This document shows positions 6,265 to 14,456 of a stretch of DNA of 64,000 nucleotides, one piece after another. The notes under the pieces are model-generated. The model was not told the DNA's origin. It worked only from the letters and a program-made list of their open reading frames with translations, and did no database searches. Location of the stretch: assembly GCA_017856545.1 (NCBI GenBank), contig JAFMEV010000001.1:66231-130230 (forward strand), in the 5' to 3' direction. Made by a program: the position numbers and the translations under genes. The stretch comes from Chitinophagaceae bacterium (lineage in GTDB: Bacteria > Bacteroidota > Bacteroidia > Chitinophagales > Chitinophagaceae). How positions within the stretch are numbered: position 1 is the stretch's first letter; every line of letters starts with the position of its first letter.

Positions 6265-6309
6265 TACCATAAAAAAACGCTCCAAAATTTGGAGCGTTTT
6301 TTTATGGTA
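6265..6309. terminator. Bidirectional intrinsic terminator
   Basis: Perfect 22-bp inverted repeat taccataaaaaaacgctccaaa / tttggagcgtttttttatggta between convergent genes. Confidence 0.9.
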
Positions 6310-6325
6310 GTAAGTTGAATAAAAA

Positions 6326-7837
6326 TTAAAATTTGATTCCGTATCCGATACTTAAAATTATTCTGTTGCTTTTTTGTTCAGCATAATAATTGTCTTTATC
6401 AATTAATCTATAAGGGAATAAAGCGTCTTTTGATGAGATATTCATAATGGTAATATCAATTAATTGATTGCCCATTCTGTATCCTAAGCCCCCGCTTATG
6501 CTCATAATAGATGCACTAATGGAATTATCTTTATAGGGCGAACCATAATATGCTGCGCCACCTCTTGCTAACCAAGCGTTAGATAATTTAAGTTCGGAGC
6601 CAATTTTAAAATTGATAGCATTTTTATGATTGTTTTTAATGATACTGTTTAAATCTTGGTAATAATTAATAACAGATTGATCATTATCTAAAGTATAGTA
6701 CTTCGTGCCAGCATAATTTACAAACTCTACATCTGCGCTGATAAAACCAAGTGGTTGTGTTGGTTTACTTGGACTAGCAAAAAAGTAACTACCACTTAAG
6801 ATAGCTTTTGAAGGAGTACGTAAATTATAAGTGCTAAATCTTGGGTAAAAATTATCAGTAAATTCATTTCTTAAATCTCCTGAGCCGATACCATCCGGGA
6901 ATTCGTTACTATACATAGAAGCATTTACAGCATCGCTGAAGCTGATGAGTTGTGGCGTATGAACCGTTAAACCCATTCTAAAAAATGGCTCAGGCTTGTA
7001 AATTAATCCCAACTTTGCACCAATACCAAAACCTTTTGAACTGTAATTTTCAAAAAAATCAAAAATTCCTTGGTTATTGGAAGAATAAGATTCCGTATAG
7101 TTTAGAGAGCTACTATAGTTAATCATTGGCAATACAATTGATCCTCCTAGATACAATTTATCTTGCGTATTACTTGCCCAGGTAAAACTCATTTCATTAT
7201 AACTTCCTGTGGTAGTTGCATCATAAAACTGATTTACATTTCCCTTGGCAATCGCTTGATAGTCTGTCACATCTTTATTATTATCAAATATAGGTACTAC
7301 CAATTTTGATAAATAGGCTAAAGAACTTCCGTAGATATAATTTTGTTGTGCTTGAGTTAAGTTCGCGCCATCATAATACAATTGATCTGCAAATTTTTCC
7401 AAATAACTGCTAAAGTTATTCTGCCCCTTAAAGCTAAAGCTATTGTTATAATCTGCCAGCTTAGTATAACTTATAGAGAAATTATTCTTCTTATATTTAT
7501 TTCTTCTATTTTCATCAGCGAATACTACACCAGCAATTCCTAAATTCATGTTATTATTATCAATACTAGTTTTGTTACCAAAATAGTTAAATTGATTTTT
7601 GTTAGAATTAAAGTTTGGGGAGATATAGAACTCGTTTGTTTTATATAATCCTAAGCCAGCTGGGTTAATACTTGTTGCAGATAAGTCTCCTCCTAAAGAA
7701 CCCATTGCACCACCTAATGCATTACTCCTAGGTGTTCCGTTTGGCATAAGCCAAGAATATCTTAATGCATCTTCTGGAGTTTGAGCACTTATTTGTGTTG
7801 CCACACTCAATGATACTAAGAATAAAAATTTCTTCAT
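6326..7837 (-). CDS. OmpP1/FadL-family outer membrane transporter
   Basis: Signal peptide ISA-Q; N-terminal GTPRSNALGGAMGSLGGDLSATSINPAGLG hatch motif typical of FadL/OmpP1; C-terminal GYGIKF beta-signal. Confidence 0.8.
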   Translation of the reverse strand: MKKFLFLVSLSVATQISAQTPEDALRYSWLMPNGTPRSNALGGAMGSLGGDLSATSINPAGLGLYKTNEFYISPNFNSNKNQFNYFGNKTSIDNNNMNLGIAGVVFADENRRNKYKKNNFSISYTKLADYNNSFSFKGQNNFSSYLEKFADQLYYDGANLTQAQQNYIYGSSLAYLSKLVVPIFDNNKDVTDYQAIAKGNVNQFYDATTTGSYNEMSFTWASNTQDKLYLGGSIVLPMINYSSSLNYTESYSSNNQGIFDFFENYSSKGFGIGAKLGLIYKPEPFFRMGLTVHTPQLISFSDAVNASMYSNEFPDGIGSGDLRNEFTDNFYPRFSTYNLRTPSKAILSGSYFFASPSKPTQPLGFISADVEFVNYAGTKYYTLDNDQSVINYYQDLNSIIKNNHKNAINFKIGSELKLSNAWLARGGAAYYGSPYKDNSISASIMSISGGLGYRMGNQLIDITIMNISSKDALFPYRLIDKDNYYAEQKSNRIILSIGYGIKF

Positions 7838-7876
7838 AATGATTTATTTAAACAATTGCTTTTATCAAAAGATAGG

Positions 7877-8998
7877 TTAGCGACCTCCGCCACCTCTTCT
7901 ACCGCCTCCAACAAAATTACCTCCGCCACTACTTCCACCACTAAAGCCACCTCCGCCTCCGCCACCATTGAAACTTGGGCTGCTATTGGATCTAACTGGA
8001 GCTGAATTAAAGTTATTGTTGTTAGAAAAACGAGAAGGTCTTTCTAGTGAATTAGCATTATTTGTTCTGTTATTGTAAGCAGCATTGCTACTCACGGCTC
8101 TTCTCATTAAACTTCCAAAATTATTGTTGTTTACAGTAGCGCTATTGATATTTCTTGACCTTCCACTATTCAAATTTGTATTTGGTCTAAAGCTACTGCC
8201 ATTAAAACTTCTATTATTGTTATTGTAACCTGCAAGATTGGTTCTACTTGGCTGCATTGGAATTCGCTCTCTGAATCTTACCACATTATTTGGGAAACCG
8301 ATGCCACCTCCGTTAAATATTGGTCCATATGGATTCCAGTAACCAGCAAAATAGGGGTTCCATCCCCATCCACCGAAACCACCCCATCCACCAAAACCTC
8401 CCCATCCACCGAAACCACCGCCCCAACCGCCAAATCCACCAAACCATGGATTCCATCCGCCGAAGCCGCCCCATCCTCCAAAACCACCAAACCATGGATC
8501 CCAAGCCCAACTATTCCAACCTCCGAATCCTCCTAATCCCCAACCACCAAAACCTCCCCATCCACCGAATCCACCGCCCCAACCGCCAAATCCACCTCCC
8601 CATCCACCGAACCATGGATCCCATCCCCAACCAATATTTCCAAAACCCCATCCACCAATTCCCATACCATAACCCATTGCCAAACTCATTCTATAGCTTG
8701 GGTTATTCCAGTAGCCAAAATCGTCAATGGTATTCCATCTATTTCTGTTAGCTACTTTTAATCTTAAAAAACGATCGTCTTGATAGTTTTGGTATTCTTG
8801 ATAATTTTCTTCTTGTGCAGTATTTGTATTTACTTCAACCTCATTGGATACTTCTCTTGTTGGGGTATCGTATAAGTCATCTTTTGCAATGCTCGCAGTA
8901 GTTTGTTGTAAACTTGTACAGCTTGTTTGCAATAAACTAAATGCCAATAAGCCAAAGCTTAAGATGCCAAAATGGATGTTAGTTTTTAGATTTTTCAT
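7877..8998 (-). CDS. Lipoprotein with Gly/Trp/Phe-rich repeat domain and Asn/Gly/Arg-rich tail (alternative start 9040)
   Basis: Lipobox LQTS-C, DDLY motif after the Cys, 12 GGW units, C-terminal GGGRRGGGGR; co-oriented 39 bp upstream of the FadL-like gene. Confidence 0.8.
   Translation of the reverse strand: MKNLKTNIHFGILSFGLLAFSLLQTSCTSLQQTTASIAKDDLYDTPTREVSNEVEVNTNTAQEENYQEYQNYQDDRFLRLKVANRNRWNTIDDFGYWNNPSYRMSLAMGYGMGIGGWGFGNIGWGWDPWFGGWGGGFGGWGGGFGGWGGFGGWGLGGFGGWNSWAWDPWFGGFGGWGGFGGWNPWFGGFGGWGGGFGGWGGFGGWGGFGGWGWNPYFAGYWNPYGPIFNGGGIGFPNNVVRFRERIPMQPSRTNLAGYNNNNRSFNGSSFRPNTNLNSGRSRNINSATVNNNNFGSLMRRAVSSNAAYNNRTNNANSLERPSRFSNNNNFNSAPVRSNSSPSFNGGGGGGGFSGGSSGGGNFVGGGRRGGGGR
8366..8656 (-). 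repeat. Coding tandem repeats (FGGW x11, GGW x12) including a 53-bp direct repeat pair (8388-8440 and 8544-8596, 1 mismatch)
   Basis: Read directly: recurring cca-tcc-acc / ccccaaccgcc units; ccaccaaaacctccccatccaccgaa(a/t)ccaccgccccaaccgccaaatccacc occurs twice, 156 bp apart. Confidence 0.9.
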
Positions 8999-9133
8999 GT
9001 TACGATATTTTTTGGTTTTAATATGCCCCTGATTTAGCATACTTTTGACAACCTAAAGGTACAAAAGTTTAATATATAGAGCGTTTTTCGTAGATGAATT
9101 GTTACTACTAAAAATGTTAATATTTTATCAATT

Positions 9134-10612
9134 ATGGCAAAGGAATTAATGACAAGAGCACAAGACTATTCTCAATGGTACAATGACCTAATTATTAAAG
9201 GTGATTTGGCAGATTATAGCGCAGTAAGAGGTTGTATGGTAATCAAGCCATATGGTTATGCATTATGGGAAAATATGCAACAAACATTAGACAAAATGTT
9301 TAAAGACACAGGACATCAGAACGCCTATTTTCCATTGTTTGTTCCTAAGTCTTTGTTTGAGGCGGAAGAAAAGAACGCAGAAGGTTTTGCAAAAGAATGT
9401 GCGATTGTAACCCATTATCGTTTAAAAACAGATCCCAATAATAAAGGAAAATTGATGGTGGATCCTGAAGCAAAATTGGAAGAAGAATTAATTGTTCGTC
9501 CTACCAGTGAAGCGATCATATGGAATACCTATAAAACATGGATTCAGTCATACAGGGATTTGCCCATTTTAGTGAATCAATGGGCCAATGTGGTGAGATG
9601 GGAAATGAGAACAAGATTGTTTTTAAGAACAGCAGAATTTTTATGGCAGGAAGGTCATACTGCACATGCTACCAAAGAAGAAGCTATTGAAGAAACAAAA
9701 ATGATCTTGGATTTATATGCAGACTTTGCAGAGAATTGGATGGCGATGCCAGTGATCAAAGGAGTGAAAACACCTAATGAAAGATTTGCTGGCGCAGAAG
9801 ATACTTATTGTATTGAAGCTTTAATGCAAGATGGTAAAGCATTACAGGCAGGTACTTCTCATTTCTTAGGTCAAAATTTTGCAAAAGCATTTGATGTAAA
9901 GTTCAGTGATAAGAGTAATCAATTAGATTATGTTTGGGCAACTAGTTGGGGTGTGAGTACAAGATTAATCGGAGGATTGGTCATGACGCATAGTGATGAT
10001 CAAGGTTTAGTTTTACCACCAAAGATTGCACCATTACAAGTAGTGATTGTTCCTATTTATAAAGGAGAAGAGCAAAAAGCTTTGATTGATGTTAAAGTAA
10101 AAGAATTCATGCAATCATTTAAAGCGGCTGGAATTAGAGTAAAATATGATGATTCAGATAATCAAAGACCAGGATGGAAGTTTGCAGAATATGAATTGAA
10201 GGGTGTGCCTGTAAGAATTGCTATTGGTGCAAGAGATTTAGAGAATAACCAAGTGGAGATAGCAAGAAGAGATACCAAAGAAAAATCTTCCGTTTCAATG
10301 GATGGATTAACCAATACCGTAAGTGCGTTATTGGAAGCCATTCAAACCAATTTATTTGAAAGAGCCAAGCAATATAGAGATGAACATATCACCAAGGCAG
10401 ACACTTGGGATGAGTTTGTTCAAATCTTAGATACAAAGGCTGGATTTGTTTCTGCACATTGGGATGGCAGTGCTGAGTCAGAGGATAAAATTAAAGAATT
10501 AACTAAAGCTACTATTCGTTGTATTCCATTGAATAATACACAAGAAGCAGGTAAGTGTATTTTAACGGGCAATCCTTCTACACAAAGAGTATTGTTTGCA
10601 AGAGCTTATTAA
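9134..10612 (+). CDS. proS: Proline--tRNA ligase (archaeal/eukaryotic-like type)
   Basis: [52 protein letters not shown]-terminal VLFARAY. Confidence 0.97.
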
Positions 10613-10624
10613 TGTGTTGCCAGA

Positions 10625-11350
10625 ATGGGCCTAAAACAAAAACCAATACCAGCTGCTTTAACACCTTTTTTGGAAGGGAAGGTTTTGTTATTAGATAAGC
10701 CCATTGGATGGACTTCATTTAATATGGTGCAGAAAGTACGTCACTTAACCAAGGTCGCCAAAGTTGGACATGCAGGTACTTTAGATCCCTTAGCTACAGG
10801 TTTGTTAATTATTTGTACAGGAAAATTCACCAAGCAAATTAATACCTATATGGGCATGACCAAAGAGTATACTGGCTCGATGGTAATAGGGGCGACTACT
10901 CCTACCTATGATTTAGAATCTGAGCCTGAAAATTTCCAATCTATTGATCATATTACAGAAGAACAAATTAAGGATGCTACAAGACAATTTATTGGGGAAA
11001 TATTACAAATGCCTCCTCAACATTCTGCCATTAAAAAAGATGGGAAAAGATTGTATGAATCAGCAAGACAGGGAATAGAAGTAAAAGTAGATCCAAGGCC
11101 CATTACTATTGAAAGTTTTGAGATCACTCATATTCAATTACCTCAAATAGATTTTAAAGTGGTGTGTTCTACCGGTACTTATATAAGAAGCTTGGTTAAA
11201 GATTTTGGAGATGCACTAGGTGTAGGTGCATATATGAGTGCACTTAGAAGAACAAAGATTGGAGCGTTTAATGTGGATGATGCAATGCAATGGGAAAATT
11301 TGCAAAAAGACATTGAGCAATTGTTGGCTAATGACTTTTTAGAAGGGTAA
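10625..11350 (+). CDS. truB: tRNA pseudouridine(55) synthase
   Basis: DKPIGWTS, KVGHAGTLDPLATGLL, CSTGTYIRSL, LRRTKIG. Confidence 0.96.
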   Translation: MGLKQKPIPAALTPFLEGKVLLLDKPIGWTSFNMVQKVRHLTKVAKVGHAGTLDPLATGLLIICTGKFTKQINTYMGMTKEYTGSMVIGATTPTYDLESEPENFQSIDHITEEQIKDATRQFIGEILQMPPQHSAIKKDGKRLYESARQGIEVKVDPRPITIESFEITHIQLPQIDFKVVCSTGTYIRSLVKDFGDALGVGAYMSALRRTKIGAFNVDDAMQWENLQKDIEQLLANDFLEG

Positions 11351-13720
11351 TCCAATACCAAATTGCCAAGCATAATTATTTACCTTAAGATTATTTTTCT
11401 TTATCTCAGACCATTGCATGTTTCTGAGATCTAACCATCCATTATTGGTTGTTCTTGTAGGATCTTTCATTTTTAAAGCATAATCAATTCTGACAATAAA
11501 ATAATTAAAGTCGAATCTTAATCCAGTACCTACACCAATGGCAAGATCTTGATACAATCTATTAAATTTAAATCCAGCCTTTGCATCTGAATCCGTATCT
11601 CTAGCATTCCAGATATTACCCATATCTGCAAAGAGCGCACTACCTAATTTATAAGATCCCCATTGAAATAAGTTAAATCTATATTCAATATTAGCTTCTA
11701 ATTGAACATCGCCAAAACGATCAAAATTAACATTGGCGGTACTTGTGTCGTAAAAATTGGAACTTCCCAAGCCCAATTGTCTTAAACCCCAAGCTCGCAT
11801 ACTATAAGGTCCACCTGCAGTAAATTGCTTGAAGAAAGGTAGAGCCCCACCCAGTCTTTTATCTTTACTATAATTATTTCCATAGCCTCCCATCAATCTA
11901 AAAGCCCATTCTGAATAGGAAGACTTAATAGATTTACGCAATTCTATTTCGGCTTTGATATAAGTATAAATATTTTTATTGAGTGATGGAATTAAGTTGG
12001 TTATTGCGCCAGCTTCTTCTATTCCAATCTTGATAAAATTGAATTGGTTAGAGAATTTTTTGGAAGGGGCTGCATGTGTGAAGGTAAATGTTTGACTCAT
12101 TACATTCCCGTCATTAAATGAAGATCTTAAGAAAGGGTTAAGAAAAAGTAAATCATCCAGTTTTGCAAATTTATTTAATTGATAAATTTCTATATTGATT
12201 GGTTTATAGATGAAATTCTTTTCTGAGGTATTGTTAATACTTTTCCATTCATACCCCCAACTGGTTGTAAAAGATTTTAATTGGTAATATTCTAATCTGT
12301 TAATACTTGAACCGTTCAATAAGAAATTAGATTTAGTAGCGTATTTTCTTGCGTGTTGATGTTTAAAAAAAGGAATCAAAATATTAGGAAAACTATAAGT
12401 GTGTCCAACATTAAATAATAAAGTTTGAGCAAATTGATCTCTAATATTATTTAAATTTAATTCTACTCCTGTTCTAAAGCTTGTAATACTTGGTATAGAT
12501 TTTTTTGCAACATTTTTATCTCTATAAGTTAAACTGGTTGAAAGTCCCAGTAAATTACCTCCCCCTAGCTGAGCAGAGTTTTTACTACCCTCAATGTCTG
12601 CGCTAATACTTCTTCTTAAGCTTGGAACTAACAAGTAATGTAAATAAACGCTATCATTTTTTATGTTAGTTCTTGAGTCAATTTGCTGCCATGCCCCTAA
12701 GCCACTAAAATTATTTAAAGTTTGAAAAAATTTTGCTTCATTATAAGGCTCTCCAACTTTGATAAAAGATTGTTCTTCAAAAATGCTTGTTTTAAAGAGG
12801 GGTTTTTTATAGAGATGTACAATGGATTTGTATTCAATTGTATTTGGACTAATTTGAGTTATTACAGAGTCTGGATTGTCATTCATACTTAAGTCACTAT
12901 AAAATAATTGCTTTCCTACCGGATATACTTTATTTGAATTACTATTTGTATTTCTTAATTGAATACTTATTTTCCATTTTGGATTGGATAAATTGAGCTG
13001 ATTCGCTGAAATCACTTGATCCATCTGAAGCAAGGGATCCAAATTCACCTCCATTAATGAAGGATCTAGGGTATCAATTTCTGCAAATATTTTTTCCTTA
13101 GTAAAATTGTAATATCCATTATTTCGAAATAACTCAACCAATCTATCTAGTTCATTATTGATTATTTGATTTGAGTAGGTATTCCCTTTTTTCAAAAAGG
13201 ATTGTGCTAAATTGGCTTTTGCAATTTTTTGTAAATTAGGGTCTGATAGTTCATAAAATACAGAATCAATAATTGTTTTTAATTGCAAATTCACCTTCAT
13301 TTGAACGGTTGTTCGGTATTCATTTTTTATTGTATCGATAAAGTAATGAGGTGTAATAATGGCATTATTGTAACCTTCGGAAGCTAAATAAGCTTGCATG
13401 TAGTTGATAGATCTTGGAATTCTATCAGCATGAAATTCGACCGGCTGTAAGAGGGTTTTAAAAAAACCAAATTGTCTGATATAGTTTGCTTTTAAACTAT
13501 CATCCCAATATTCCTCTAAAGCAAATTTCATTTCTTTTTGGAATTGTTTACTTTGTTGTCCTTCAATAATGATTTCGTTTTTGTAAACAAAAGGAGTTTC
13601 TTTTGGATAATCATGCACGATGGCCTTTTTGAGGTCAGCGCAGCTGTTTAATAAAAATAGTAGGCCGAATAGGCAATATCTTGAGTAGAATCTAATATTT
13701 TTATTGTTCAGTAACGACAT
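11339..13720 (-). CDS. BamA/TamA-family outer membrane protein, lipoprotein type (TamL-like)
   Basis: Lipobox LLNS-C, POTRA-like N-terminus, FTAGGPYSMRAW, LEANIEYRF, GTGLRFDFNYFIVRIDY, C-terminal IGLPF; ATG at 13720 preferred over the ORF-track start at 13747. Confidence 0.85.
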   Translation of the reverse strand: MSLLNNKNIRFYSRYCLFGLLFLLNSCADLKKAIVHDYPKETPFVYKNEIIIEGQQSKQFQKEMKFALEEYWDDSLKANYIRQFGFFKTLLQPVEFHADRIPRSINYMQAYLASEGYNNAIITPHYFIDTIKNEYRTTVQMKVNLQLKTIIDSVFYELSDPNLQKIAKANLAQSFLKKGNTYSNQIINNELDRLVELFRNNGYYNFTKEKIFAEIDTLDPSLMEVNLDPLLQMDQVISANQLNLSNPKWKISIQLRNTNSNSNKVYPVGKQLFYSDLSMNDNPDSVITQISPNTIEYKSIVHLYKKPLFKTSIFEEQSFIKVGEPYNEAKFFQTLNNFSGLGAWQQIDSRTNIKNDSVYLHYLLVPSLRRSISADIEGSKNSAQLGGGNLLGLSTSLTYRDKNVAKKSIPSITSFRTGVELNLNNIRDQFAQTLLFNVGHTYSFPNILIPFFKHQHARKYATKSNFLLNGSSINRLEYYQLKSFTTSWGYEWKSINNTSEKNFIYKPINIEIYQLNKFAKLDDLLFLNPFLRSSFNDGNVMSQTFTFTHAAPSKKFSNQFNFIKIGIEEAGAITNLIPSLNKNIYTYIKAEIELRKSIKSSYSEWAFRLMGGYGNNYSKDKRLGGALPFFKQFTAGGPYSMRAWGLRQLGLGSSNFYDTSTANVNFDRFGDVQLEANIEYRFNLFQWGSYKLGSALFADMGNIWNARDTDSDAKAGFKFNRLYQDLAIGVGTGLRFDFNYFIVRIDYALKMKDPTRTTNNGWLDLRNMQWSEIKKNNLKVNNYAWQFGIGLPF

Positions 13721-13724
13721 AAAG

Positions 13725-14456
13725 ATGATTAGTAAGAATGAGCTCAAATATATCCAATCTTTTGCCCATAAAAAACAATGGGCCCAAGAATCTGTGTTTA
13801 TCGTTGAAGGACCTAAATTGGTAGAAGAACTTTTAGATTCAGATTGGGAACTTGAAGCCGTTTATTGTATAGAGCCCTGGTTGAAACAATGGAGTCAACC
13901 CATGCCACATGTAACCATTGTTTCCGAACAAGAATTAGAAAGAATAAGTTTACTTCAGCAGCCTAATCAAGTACTAGCTATAGTAAAAAAGAAACAATAT
14001 AATGCTCCCTTAACATTCAAAGGCAACCTCACTTTGGTATTAGATGGCATACAAGATCCAGGAAACCTGGGTACGATCATTCGCACTTTTGATTGGTTTG
14101 GTGGAAAACAAATTATTGTCACTGAAGATACTGCAGGCTTATTTAACCCAAAAGTTATTCAAAGTACAATGGGTAGTTTTCTGAGAGTAAGGGTAGAAGT
14201 TGTTCATGATATTCCAAGTTTATTGAAGAGCCAAGATTTGCCTGTGTATGGTGCCATCTTGAAAGGATCATCTATTTATCAAACAACATTTAAGCAAGAA
14301 GGGTTTTTAATTATTGGTAACGAATCAAAGGGTATAAGAGAGGATTTGATTTCTTTAATTGATCATGCTATTGCTATTCCTCAATTTGGGGGTGCTGAAT
14401 CATTAAATGCTGCAGTTGCAACTGGAATTTTACTATCTCATTGGAAAGGGCAATAA
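13725..14456 (+). CDS. TrmH/SpoU family RNA methyltransferase
   Basis: FIVEGPKLVEEL, LDGIQDPGNLGTIIRT, IIGNESKGI, AESLNAAVATGI. Confidence 0.93.
   Translation: MISKNELKYIQSFAHKKQWAQESVFIVEGPKLVEELLDSDWELEAVYCIEPWLKQWSQPMPHVTIVSEQELERISLLQQPNQVLAIVKKKQYNAPLTFKGNLTLVLDGIQDPGNLGTIIRTFDWFGGKQIIVTEDTAGLFNPKVIQSTMGSFLRVRVEVVHDIPSLLKSQDLPVYGAILKGSSIYQTTFKQEGFLIIGNESKGIREDLISLIDHAIAIPQFGGAESLNAAVATGILLSHWKGQ
13745..13752 (-). promoter_or_regulatory. Candidate -7 promoter element (TATATTTG) for the tamL-like gene, inside the trmH CDS
   Basis: Forward caaatata = TAnnTTTG on the minus strand, 24 nt upstream of the ATG at 13720. Confidence 0.55.

Follow-up and report, generated by a model that had tools for sequence, protein, structure and literature searches.

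A conserved Bacteroidota gene pair of a predicted disordered, aromatic/glycine-rich lipoprotein and a FadL-superfamily barrel, with an FGGW array in a Chitinophagaceae bacterium

Results and discussion

The 64,000-nt stretch analysed here (forward positions 66,231–130,230 of contig JAFMEV010000001.1, assembly GCA_017856545.1, Chitinophagaceae bacterium; hereafter the window) carries on its minus strand two successive open reading frames (ORFs), 7877–9040 for a lipoprotein with an FGGW repeat and 6326–7837 for an outer-membrane barrel of the FadL superfamily. As described in the original prediction, the ORF list places the barrel gene 39 bp downstream of the lipoprotein gene. Based on sequence comparison and gene order, the two constitute a conserved Bacteroidota gene pair, usually divergent from the prolyl-tRNA synthetase gene proS, and they are expressed as one two-gene operon. 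The lipoprotein is predicted to be almost entirely disordered, and its FGGW array is a young, fast-evolving local state of the family's aromatic/Gly core, not a special domain. The theme of a FadL-type barrel with a partner is known from this phylum; new is the kind of partner, an almost wholly disordered aromatic/Gly lipoprotein without a described family. We give about even chances to a periplasm-facing envelope complex of barrel and partner, in which the core would act through its bulk composition.

Conservation and gene order

The barrel profile matches at least 199 of 401 Bacteroidota genomes and at least 130 of 178 genera; with three candidates scored per genome, 199 is a lower bound. 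Among 20 loci from 20 genera and 17 family codes, 19 have an aromatic-rich ORF of 300–500 aa directly upstream of the barrel gene, the upstream ORF of the twentieth being reduced to 195 aa, and proS is adjacent and divergent in 13. Within the Chitinophagaceae, to which all named-organism loci belong (the phylum-wide barrel alignments hold no stretch conserved enough), the pair persists where the flanking genes differ. Of the named species-level loci, 66 extend far enough upstream to be scored; all of these carry the upstream ORF, in 63 cases with a lipobox, and the aromatic/Gly core is kept in 66 of 66 related species. The earlier suggestion of a conserved, uncharacterised pair beside proS in other Bacteroidota is thus borne out. 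In the window, too, the low-complexity lipoprotein gene lies directly upstream of the barrel gene and divergent from proS (9134–10612, plus strand, assigned by Pfam), and the pair is retained in this streamlined freshwater genome of 1.87 Mb.

The gene tamL, encoding an Omp85-family lipoprotein, is found two genes from the pair (11339–13747, minus strand), in the order tamL-truB-proS-lipoprotein-barrel (window 9134–13747). Linkage to tamL was considered as a family trait and rejected: it lies two genes off here and in close relatives and is adjacent in none of the 20 diverse loci. Therefore, this arrangement is specific to the lineage.

A counterpart of the pair exists in Flavobacterium johnsoniae. 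According to PMC12045153 and its supplement, the proline-tRNA ligase gene Fjoh_4939 (proS) adjoins Fjoh_4940, classed as a signal peptidase II (SPII) 'periplasm-facing lipoprotein' of unknown function, and the FadL homologue Fjoh_4941. On depletion of TamL, Fjoh_4941 increased 5.6-fold and the adjacent Fjoh_4940 2.6-fold, for which the authors suggest a functional link; the TAM module, to which TamL belongs, likely also transports lipids (PMC12045153). In addition, proteomics in a paper on the β-barrel assembly machinery (BAM) list six peptides of Fjoh_4941 (A5FA29, 55 kDa), whose levels drop on BAM depletion. These six peptides match the barrel of a close Flavobacterium relative (locus L069), LDLAYSYLER being identical and the others differing at 2 to 6 positions, and the L069 barrel belongs to the family of the window barrel (30% identity, E 2e-40). 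By this sequence matching, the window pair is orthologous to Fjoh_4940/Fjoh_4941, both of which are made in F. johnsoniae. Shared features are the gene order proS / lipoprotein / ~55-kDa FadL-like barrel and an SPII lipoprotein lacking the export signal discussed below, whereas the flavobacterial cores seen (L065 and L069) are rich in Tyr, Trp and Gly and have no FGGW repeats. The comparison gives no mechanism. Our search of the searchable literature for the pair returned only the TamL study as discussing it, and this passing mention leaves the pair unnamed. As a tractable host, F. johnsoniae offers a system for its study.

A frameshift within the Tyr/Gly repeat splits the orthologous lipoprotein gene at L069:3044-4041, a locus of the complete Flavobacterium genome G339. 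Frame 0 runs to ...GWGYPSYW and another frame continues with GPGWGYPGYWGGGYYG... to a GGGGGGRR end. An error of sequencing, a pseudogene or a site prone to slippage could each account for the split.

Expression of the operon

The spacer between the genes (7838–7876, minus strand) is transcribed, being crossed by RNA contigs of three metatranscriptomes (X27, 7107–8219; X25, 7828–8989; X28, 7815–8352). RNA depths of lipoprotein and barrel are similar to each other and to that of proS. Because the contigs cross the spacer and also cover the whole repeat, both operon and array are real, and co-transcription of the two genes is established.

Two in-frame start codons are available for the lipoprotein. 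The first ATG, at 9040, would give 387 aa and the second, at 8998, gives 373 aa. Every lipoprotein homologue starts with MKNLK, matching the ATG at 8998. From run X25, one RNA contig ends at 9036 and another at 9039, where it continues into adaptor sequence; this leaves 9040 outside the transcript and rules out the first ATG. The true start is therefore the second one, with the coding sequence at 7877–8998 (minus strand), and the 5′ end of the operon apparently lies near 9036–9039. Expression at about the level of proS, next to proS across the phylum and in a 1.87-Mb genome, makes it likely that the pair does something basic for the Bacteroidota outer membrane.

Architecture of the lipoprotein

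All segments originally listed (lipobox, DDLY region, Asn/Ser/Arg-rich segment and Gly/Arg tail) could be retrieved. On the minus strand, the signal peptide with the lipobox LLQTS-C27 (8918–8998) is followed by a conserved N-terminal module (residues 27–112; 8663–8920), the Gly/Trp/Phe core (residues 111–224; 8327–8668), a basic, predicted disordered segment rich in Asn, Ser and Arg (7964–8326) and a tail that is first Gly/Ser- and then Arg/Gly-rich, GGGGGGGFSGGSSGGGNFVGGGRRGGGGR (7880–7963). The module consists of CTSLQQ..DDLY (DDLY being residues 40–43), an acidic spacer rich in Glu, Gln and Tyr, and YQEYQNYQDDRFLRLKVANRNRW..IDDFGYWNNP, with columns that are invariant in alignment A1. It occurs in 102 cluster representatives among 1.84 billion proteins, always N-terminally, and the proteins bearing it are 80–390 aa long, mostly 200–300 aa. 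In the structural model it appears as short linear motifs plus one low-confidence helix. Small conserved motifs, NFGSLMRR and LERPSR, are carried by the Asn/Ser/Arg segment in the same alignment. The C-terminal tail includes GGGRRGGGGR; comparison across families indicates that this Arg/Gly tail type is kept phylum-wide, tails ending in ...GGR..R in families of several classes.

The net charges of N-part, core and C-part are -5, -2 and +15, and the core has about 36 aromatics per 100 residues. This three-part pattern of an acidic N-part, a neutral aromatic core and a basic C-part recurs in 16 of 18 diverse members from many families, where the core holds 31–46 aromatics per 100 residues and the C-part charge ranges from +8 to +59. 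The window lipoprotein shares the traits by which partners in the pair family were recognised, namely DD[VIL]Y near the N-terminus, a neutral core with at least 30% aromatics and a basic tail ending in Gly/Arg.

The AlphaFold2 (AF2) model of the lipoprotein has a mean predicted local distance difference test (pLDDT) score of 38, low-confidence helices only at residues 74–89 and 296–303, and no domain. The protein is thus predicted to be an almost entirely disordered, aromatic low-complexity chain, in agreement with the original prediction. Scans of this lipoprotein and five diverse relatives (six in all) against Pfam and NCBIfam gave no family match, and no PDB sequence match was obtained for the window protein. 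To our knowledge, an almost fully disordered envelope protein is unusual for bacteria.

According to PMC12578637, the lipoprotein export signal (LES) of Bacteroidota requires a minimum of two acidic residues among the six positions after the lipidated Cys. Here, the sequence TSLQQT follows, with no acidic residue in six positions, and none was found in 65 of 65 close homologues with a recognised lipobox (73 examined). This rule places the protein outside the surface lipoproteins. Together with the classification of Fjoh_4940 as periplasm-facing, the missing LES argues against a surface mesh that would capture ligands, and an orientation towards the periplasm is likely on these sequence grounds.

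The same observations bear on a different idea, in which the barrel exports or displays the disordered protein at the surface, where its aromatic/Gly and Asn-rich parts would form an amyloid, gel or matrix. A fully disordered chain could thread a narrow channel, part of the family has an ordinary signal peptide in place of the lipid anchor, and the Asn- and aromatic-rich composition is like that of self-associating sequences. However, FadL-fold barrels are plugged by an N-terminal hatch, which is conserved here, and neither the absence of an LES nor the class assigned to Fjoh_4940 fits surface display. We know of no FadL-type protein that secretes a polypeptide, and overall we regard export or display as very unlikely.

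Composition and turnover of the FGGW core

Residues 111–224 (114 aa) contain 49% G, 18% W and 13% F, so 80% of the core is Gly, Trp or Phe. The counts of tandem motifs given earlier proved exact, with 11 copies of FGGW and four of W[DN]P[WY]F[GA]G (residues 126, 166, 182 and 213). The Gly codons of the core are mixed (GGT 26, GGA 23, GGC 7), the repeat units are merely 60–92% identical as DNA, and the repeat DNA has 55% G+C vs 35% for the window. The core is therefore more regular in protein than in DNA, and this regularity opposes the genome's mutational bias. The earlier suggestion of selection at the protein level is thus supported, the repeat being kept at the level of protein or composition. 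Among the direct repeats, two copies of a 66-nt unit, 92% identical, lie 156 nt from each other and provide a substrate for repeat-length changes.

An array of this kind might also have arisen in assembly, or be a low-complexity insertion that is non-functional and decaying. Short-read contigs break within it, minor paths with a 9-bp deletion or a 97-nt skip occur, and the orthologue in the one complete Flavobacterium genome mentioned above carries its frameshift inside the repeat. However, the single X25 RNA contig spanning 7828–8989 covers the entire array with three substitutions and no indels, and an independent metagenome-assembled genome of a species-level relative (L078) has a similar array with nine FGGW units. 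The reading frame also stays open through 114 residues in a stretch whose G+C content is 20 points above that of the genome, and all 66 related species possess an aromatic/Gly core. The array is genuine and an assembly artefact is excluded; artefact and decay taken together are hardly credible as an explanation.

In DNA run X10, one 3x contig skips 97 nt in 8440–8538 with one inserted base (96 nt, in frame), and another contig is without 9 nt at 8526. These contigs suggest minor repeat-length variants in one river population.

The array itself is not a conserved feature of the family. Per 100 core residues, this lipoprotein has 20 W, 2 Y, 14 F and 50 G, the corresponding medians of 73 close homologues being 9, 14, 11 and 30, and most relatives have a Tyr-rich core. 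FGGW-rich cores, defined as having five or more FGGW units and scored on a barrel tree of 63 species, occur in 13 of the 63; at least six gains or losses are required by the well-supported branches and eight by parsimony. One example is formed by the near-sister loci L103 and L110, whose barrel tips lie 0.037 and 0.018 from their common node. Their N- and C-terminal parts are nearly identical, yet the core is (GGWGGGF)x9 in L103 vs Tyr-rich in L110. Within the window's 90% cluster, the lipoproteins of near-identical strains are 309, 321 or 373 aa long and differ solely in repeat number; these length alleles were read from short-read metagenome assemblies, which are prone to repeat collapse. 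From the survey of repeat number that had been called for, the conservation of the pair therefore emerges intact and that of the array does not, as FGGW arrays come and go between sister species.

Because the core tolerates wholesale replacement, selection would seem to act on its composition and length rather than on its sequence. This points to a core function that depends on bulk composition (aromatics plus Gly) and length. The Tyr-rich and FGGW cores of sister species, together with the length alleles within a population, are natural variants that bear on a composition-only function.

The core had also been described as prion-like or FG-nucleoporin-like. The likeness to these eukaryotic sequences (FG-nucleoporins, FUS-type [G/S]Y[G/S] plus RGG, and the octarepeat of the prion protein, PrP) is one of composition, with aromatics set in glycine, predicted disorder and an Arg/Gly tail. 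No homology exists, however, and the window lipoprotein is extracytoplasmic, lipid-anchored by its lipobox, and without hydrophilic spacers between its FG units; its 'GGGW' units also contain no His, unlike the PrP octarepeat.

A similar sequence was found in P0074, an unrelated lipoprotein of 229 aa with a PF13590 domain, whose insert GFGGFGGIGGFGPGWGWNPYWGGFGGGFGGWGGGFGGFGGGFGG closely resembles the FGGW/WNPY core. It is possibly a convergent or shuffled low-complexity sequence in another family of envelope lipoproteins.

Fold and family of the barrel

The barrel (6326–7837, minus strand, 503 aa; family range ~480–540 aa) is modelled by AF2 as a 14-strand β-barrel with a pLDDT of 78 and a predicted template modelling (pTM) score of 0.76. 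Foldseek matches the model to FadL, TbuX, TodX and CymD, and about equally to the BamG chains of three BAM structures (E 1e-11 to 1e-14, identity 10–14%). The window barrel itself has no Pfam match at E≤0.1 and reaches 19.5 bits vs the 29.7-bit cut-off of PF03349, whereas its orthologues in L065 (47.8 bits) and L070 (59.6 bits) pass. More than 1,250 barrel homologues were recovered among 8,000 candidates scored, and PF03349 is present in most of the 120 matches listed. Neither the barrel nor its Flavobacterium orthologue gave a match when searched against PDB sequences; the family profile weakly matches FadL homologues in the PDB (3DWO and TbuX). The assignment to FadL thus rests on the Pfam matches of relatives and on the predicted fold. 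On these grounds the FadL-type barrel originally proposed is upheld in fold and family, but the window protein itself falls under the Pfam FadL/Toluene_X threshold.

The mature barrel begins with QTPEDALRYSW. DALRYS or a close variant, starting three to six residues past signal cleavage, is found in 11 of 14 diverse barrels. The hatch motif INPAG occupies residues 57–61, with N58, P59 and A60 invariant in alignments A3 and A4, and ...NPAG is present in 13 of the 14 barrels. In mature numbering, the hatch NPA lies at residues 40–42 compared with 33–35 in Escherichia coli FadL (numbering taken from the PDB mutant names N33A and P34A), i.e. seven residues further in. Besides this tail with its invariant DALRYS extension, the window barrel differs from FadL, TodX and TbuX in being ~60–80 residues longer and in having an obligatory disordered partner gene.

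The other characterised FadL-type barrels of the phylum that PMC12611786 and PMC12578637 name, PorV and BamG, dock partners and are not transporters. BamG has an extended conserved N-tail and docks BamH, a folded, two-domain, surface-exposed lipoprotein, and the genes of BamG2-BamH2 form an operon. As a FadL-type barrel with a docked lipoprotein, BamG was tested as the identity of the window barrel and rejected. The BamG model NF053685 (equivalog cut-off 250 bits) gives no match to it, and its best relative scores 39.5 bits. The BamG of this genome is a separate protein of 460 aa (G000:C56:39733-41031; locus L077:1426-2808) with an end-to-end NF053685 match of 240.7–241 bits, just under the cut-off, and its gene sits between coaX (type III pantothenate kinase-like) and lptC. 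PorV/PorQ (NF033709, NF033710, NF052325) was also discarded as a candidate, the barrel scoring 21.6 bits for PorV2 vs a 325-bit cut-off and its relatives 34–42 bits for PorV_fam, far under the cut-offs; the PorV-like barrel of the genome is encoded on a different contig (C75), where its gene follows a porU-like one. Weak NCBIfam similarity aside, the resemblance to PorV/PorQ of type IX secretion is to partner-holding, FadL-like barrels from the same phylum. The window barrel is neither BamG nor PorV, both of which the genome encodes elsewhere, and represents a third FadL-superfamily lineage of the phylum beside them. No gene for a BamH-like lipoprotein adjoins the genome's BamG gene.

The pair might nevertheless serve as an accessory or alternative BAM module of the BamG2-BamH2 kind. 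Like BamG-BamH, it combines a FadL-superfamily barrel of 14 strands and a conserved, extended N-tail with a lipoprotein, the two genes being in one operon as for BamG2-BamH2, Foldseek scores BamG chains about as well as FadL, and Fjoh_4941 falls on BAM depletion, though the latter is expected of any BAM client. On the other side, the barrel fails the BamG model, a full-length BamG is present elsewhere, and the barrel is ~100 residues longer than BamG chains. The lipoprotein was also rejected as BamH, being without an LES, without a domain (pLDDT 38) and without a PDB sequence match, unlike and unrelated to the folded surface protein; nor did it co-purify in published BAM preparations as their text describes them (PMC12611786, PMC12578637). 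A BAM module is thus highly improbable.

Possible role of the pair

In the arrangement that we favour, the lipoprotein would be anchored in the inner leaflet of the outer membrane and face the periplasm. It has three parts: an acidic N-part with DDLY and, further on, DDRFLRLKVANRNRW..IDDFGYWNNP; a core that is neutral and aromatic/Gly-rich; and a basic Asn/Ser/Arg region with the Arg/Gly tail. The dedicated 14-strand barrel, with its invariant and slightly extended N-terminal tail, would dock the lipoprotein as PorV and BamG do with their partners, the conserved N-terminal motifs of the lipoprotein binding the barrel. Aromatic core and basic tail would then extend into the periplasm or along the membrane interface and there self-associate or bind anionic envelope material. 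A physical complex of lipoprotein and barrel is somewhat probable. That the pair serves outer-membrane homeostasis, not niche nutrient uptake, is a more tentative proposal, to which we give a little less than even odds. If the arrangement is correct, it would add to PorV and BamG a third FadL-fold module of the 'barrel plus partner' type in the phylum.

Several points weigh against this arrangement. The periplasmic orientation derives solely from the missing export signal and the published prediction for Fjoh_4940. Lipid anchoring does not seem obligatory in the family, because the members with an ordinary signal peptide have no lipobox; in these, DD[VI]Y stands at, or at most ~5 residues from, the predicted mature N-terminus. 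The rise on TamL depletion is a single proteomic observation and could reflect general stress. Repeat collapse may affect the length alleles, and Logan contigs break within the array. Finally, the barrel may have a role in transport, since it retains the NPA hatch motif found in true FadL transporters.

This last point leads to a working FadL-type uptake channel, for which the aromatic lipoprotein would capture, gate or pass on hydrophobic ligands, for example as a greasy periplasmic acceptor. Fold, hatch motif and the Toluene_X matches of relatives are in line with it, as is the rise of the F. johnsoniae orthologues on depletion of TamL, given the likely lipid transport by TAM (PMC12045153), and a core with ~35% aromatics could bind hydrophobic compounds. 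However, capture at the cell surface is unlikely with no surface-export signal, and retention by a housekeeping gene throughout the phylum, even in a 1.87-Mb genome, fits a core envelope role better than uptake of a specific substrate. Moreover, the swing between Tyr-rich and Trp/Phe/Gly-rich cores in sister species argues against a tuned binding site, and the BamG-like invariant N-tail of the barrel weakens the idea of ligand capture. An uptake channel is therefore considered unlikely.

A more speculative reading is a lipid-anchored, cohesive periplasmic phase (gel or condensate), in which aromatic stickers set in glycine and an Arg/Gly tail, a grammar analogous to that of FUS and FG-nucleoporins, would be nucleated on the FadL-type barrel. 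We consider it quite unlikely. If it were true, the free exchange of Tyr-rich and Trp/Phe/Gly-rich cores would be the signature of a material-property function, not of a binding site.

Transcript ends and minor features

Downstream of the barrel gene, a perfect palindromic hairpin (6278–6296) was read from the sequence, CGCTCCAAA-A-TTTGGAGCG, which with its A7 and T7 flanks covers 6271–6303 (no strand assigned) and is common to the operon and the convergent M16 peptidase gene. The RNA contigs of the operon stop at 6306–6381 and none runs through the hairpin. It is likely a bidirectional terminator serving both, and it was not listed by the consensus terminator scan; the scan for sigma-70 promoters and terminators was uninformative for Bacteroidota. 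A TAnnTTTG scan revealed no clean -7 box with the right spacing from the operon's apparent 5′ end.

Long ORFs in other frames and on the opposite strand, at 8320–8751 (plus strand) and 8278–8510 (minus strand) and of His/Pro/Asn-rich or Trp/Arg/Met-rich composition, are spurious by-products of the repeat and no genes. A Bacteroidota-type -7 box, TAATTTTG, is present at 7912–7919 (minus strand), within the 3′ end of the lipoprotein gene and ~75 nt upstream of the barrel ATG, and could be a candidate second, internal promoter for the barrel.

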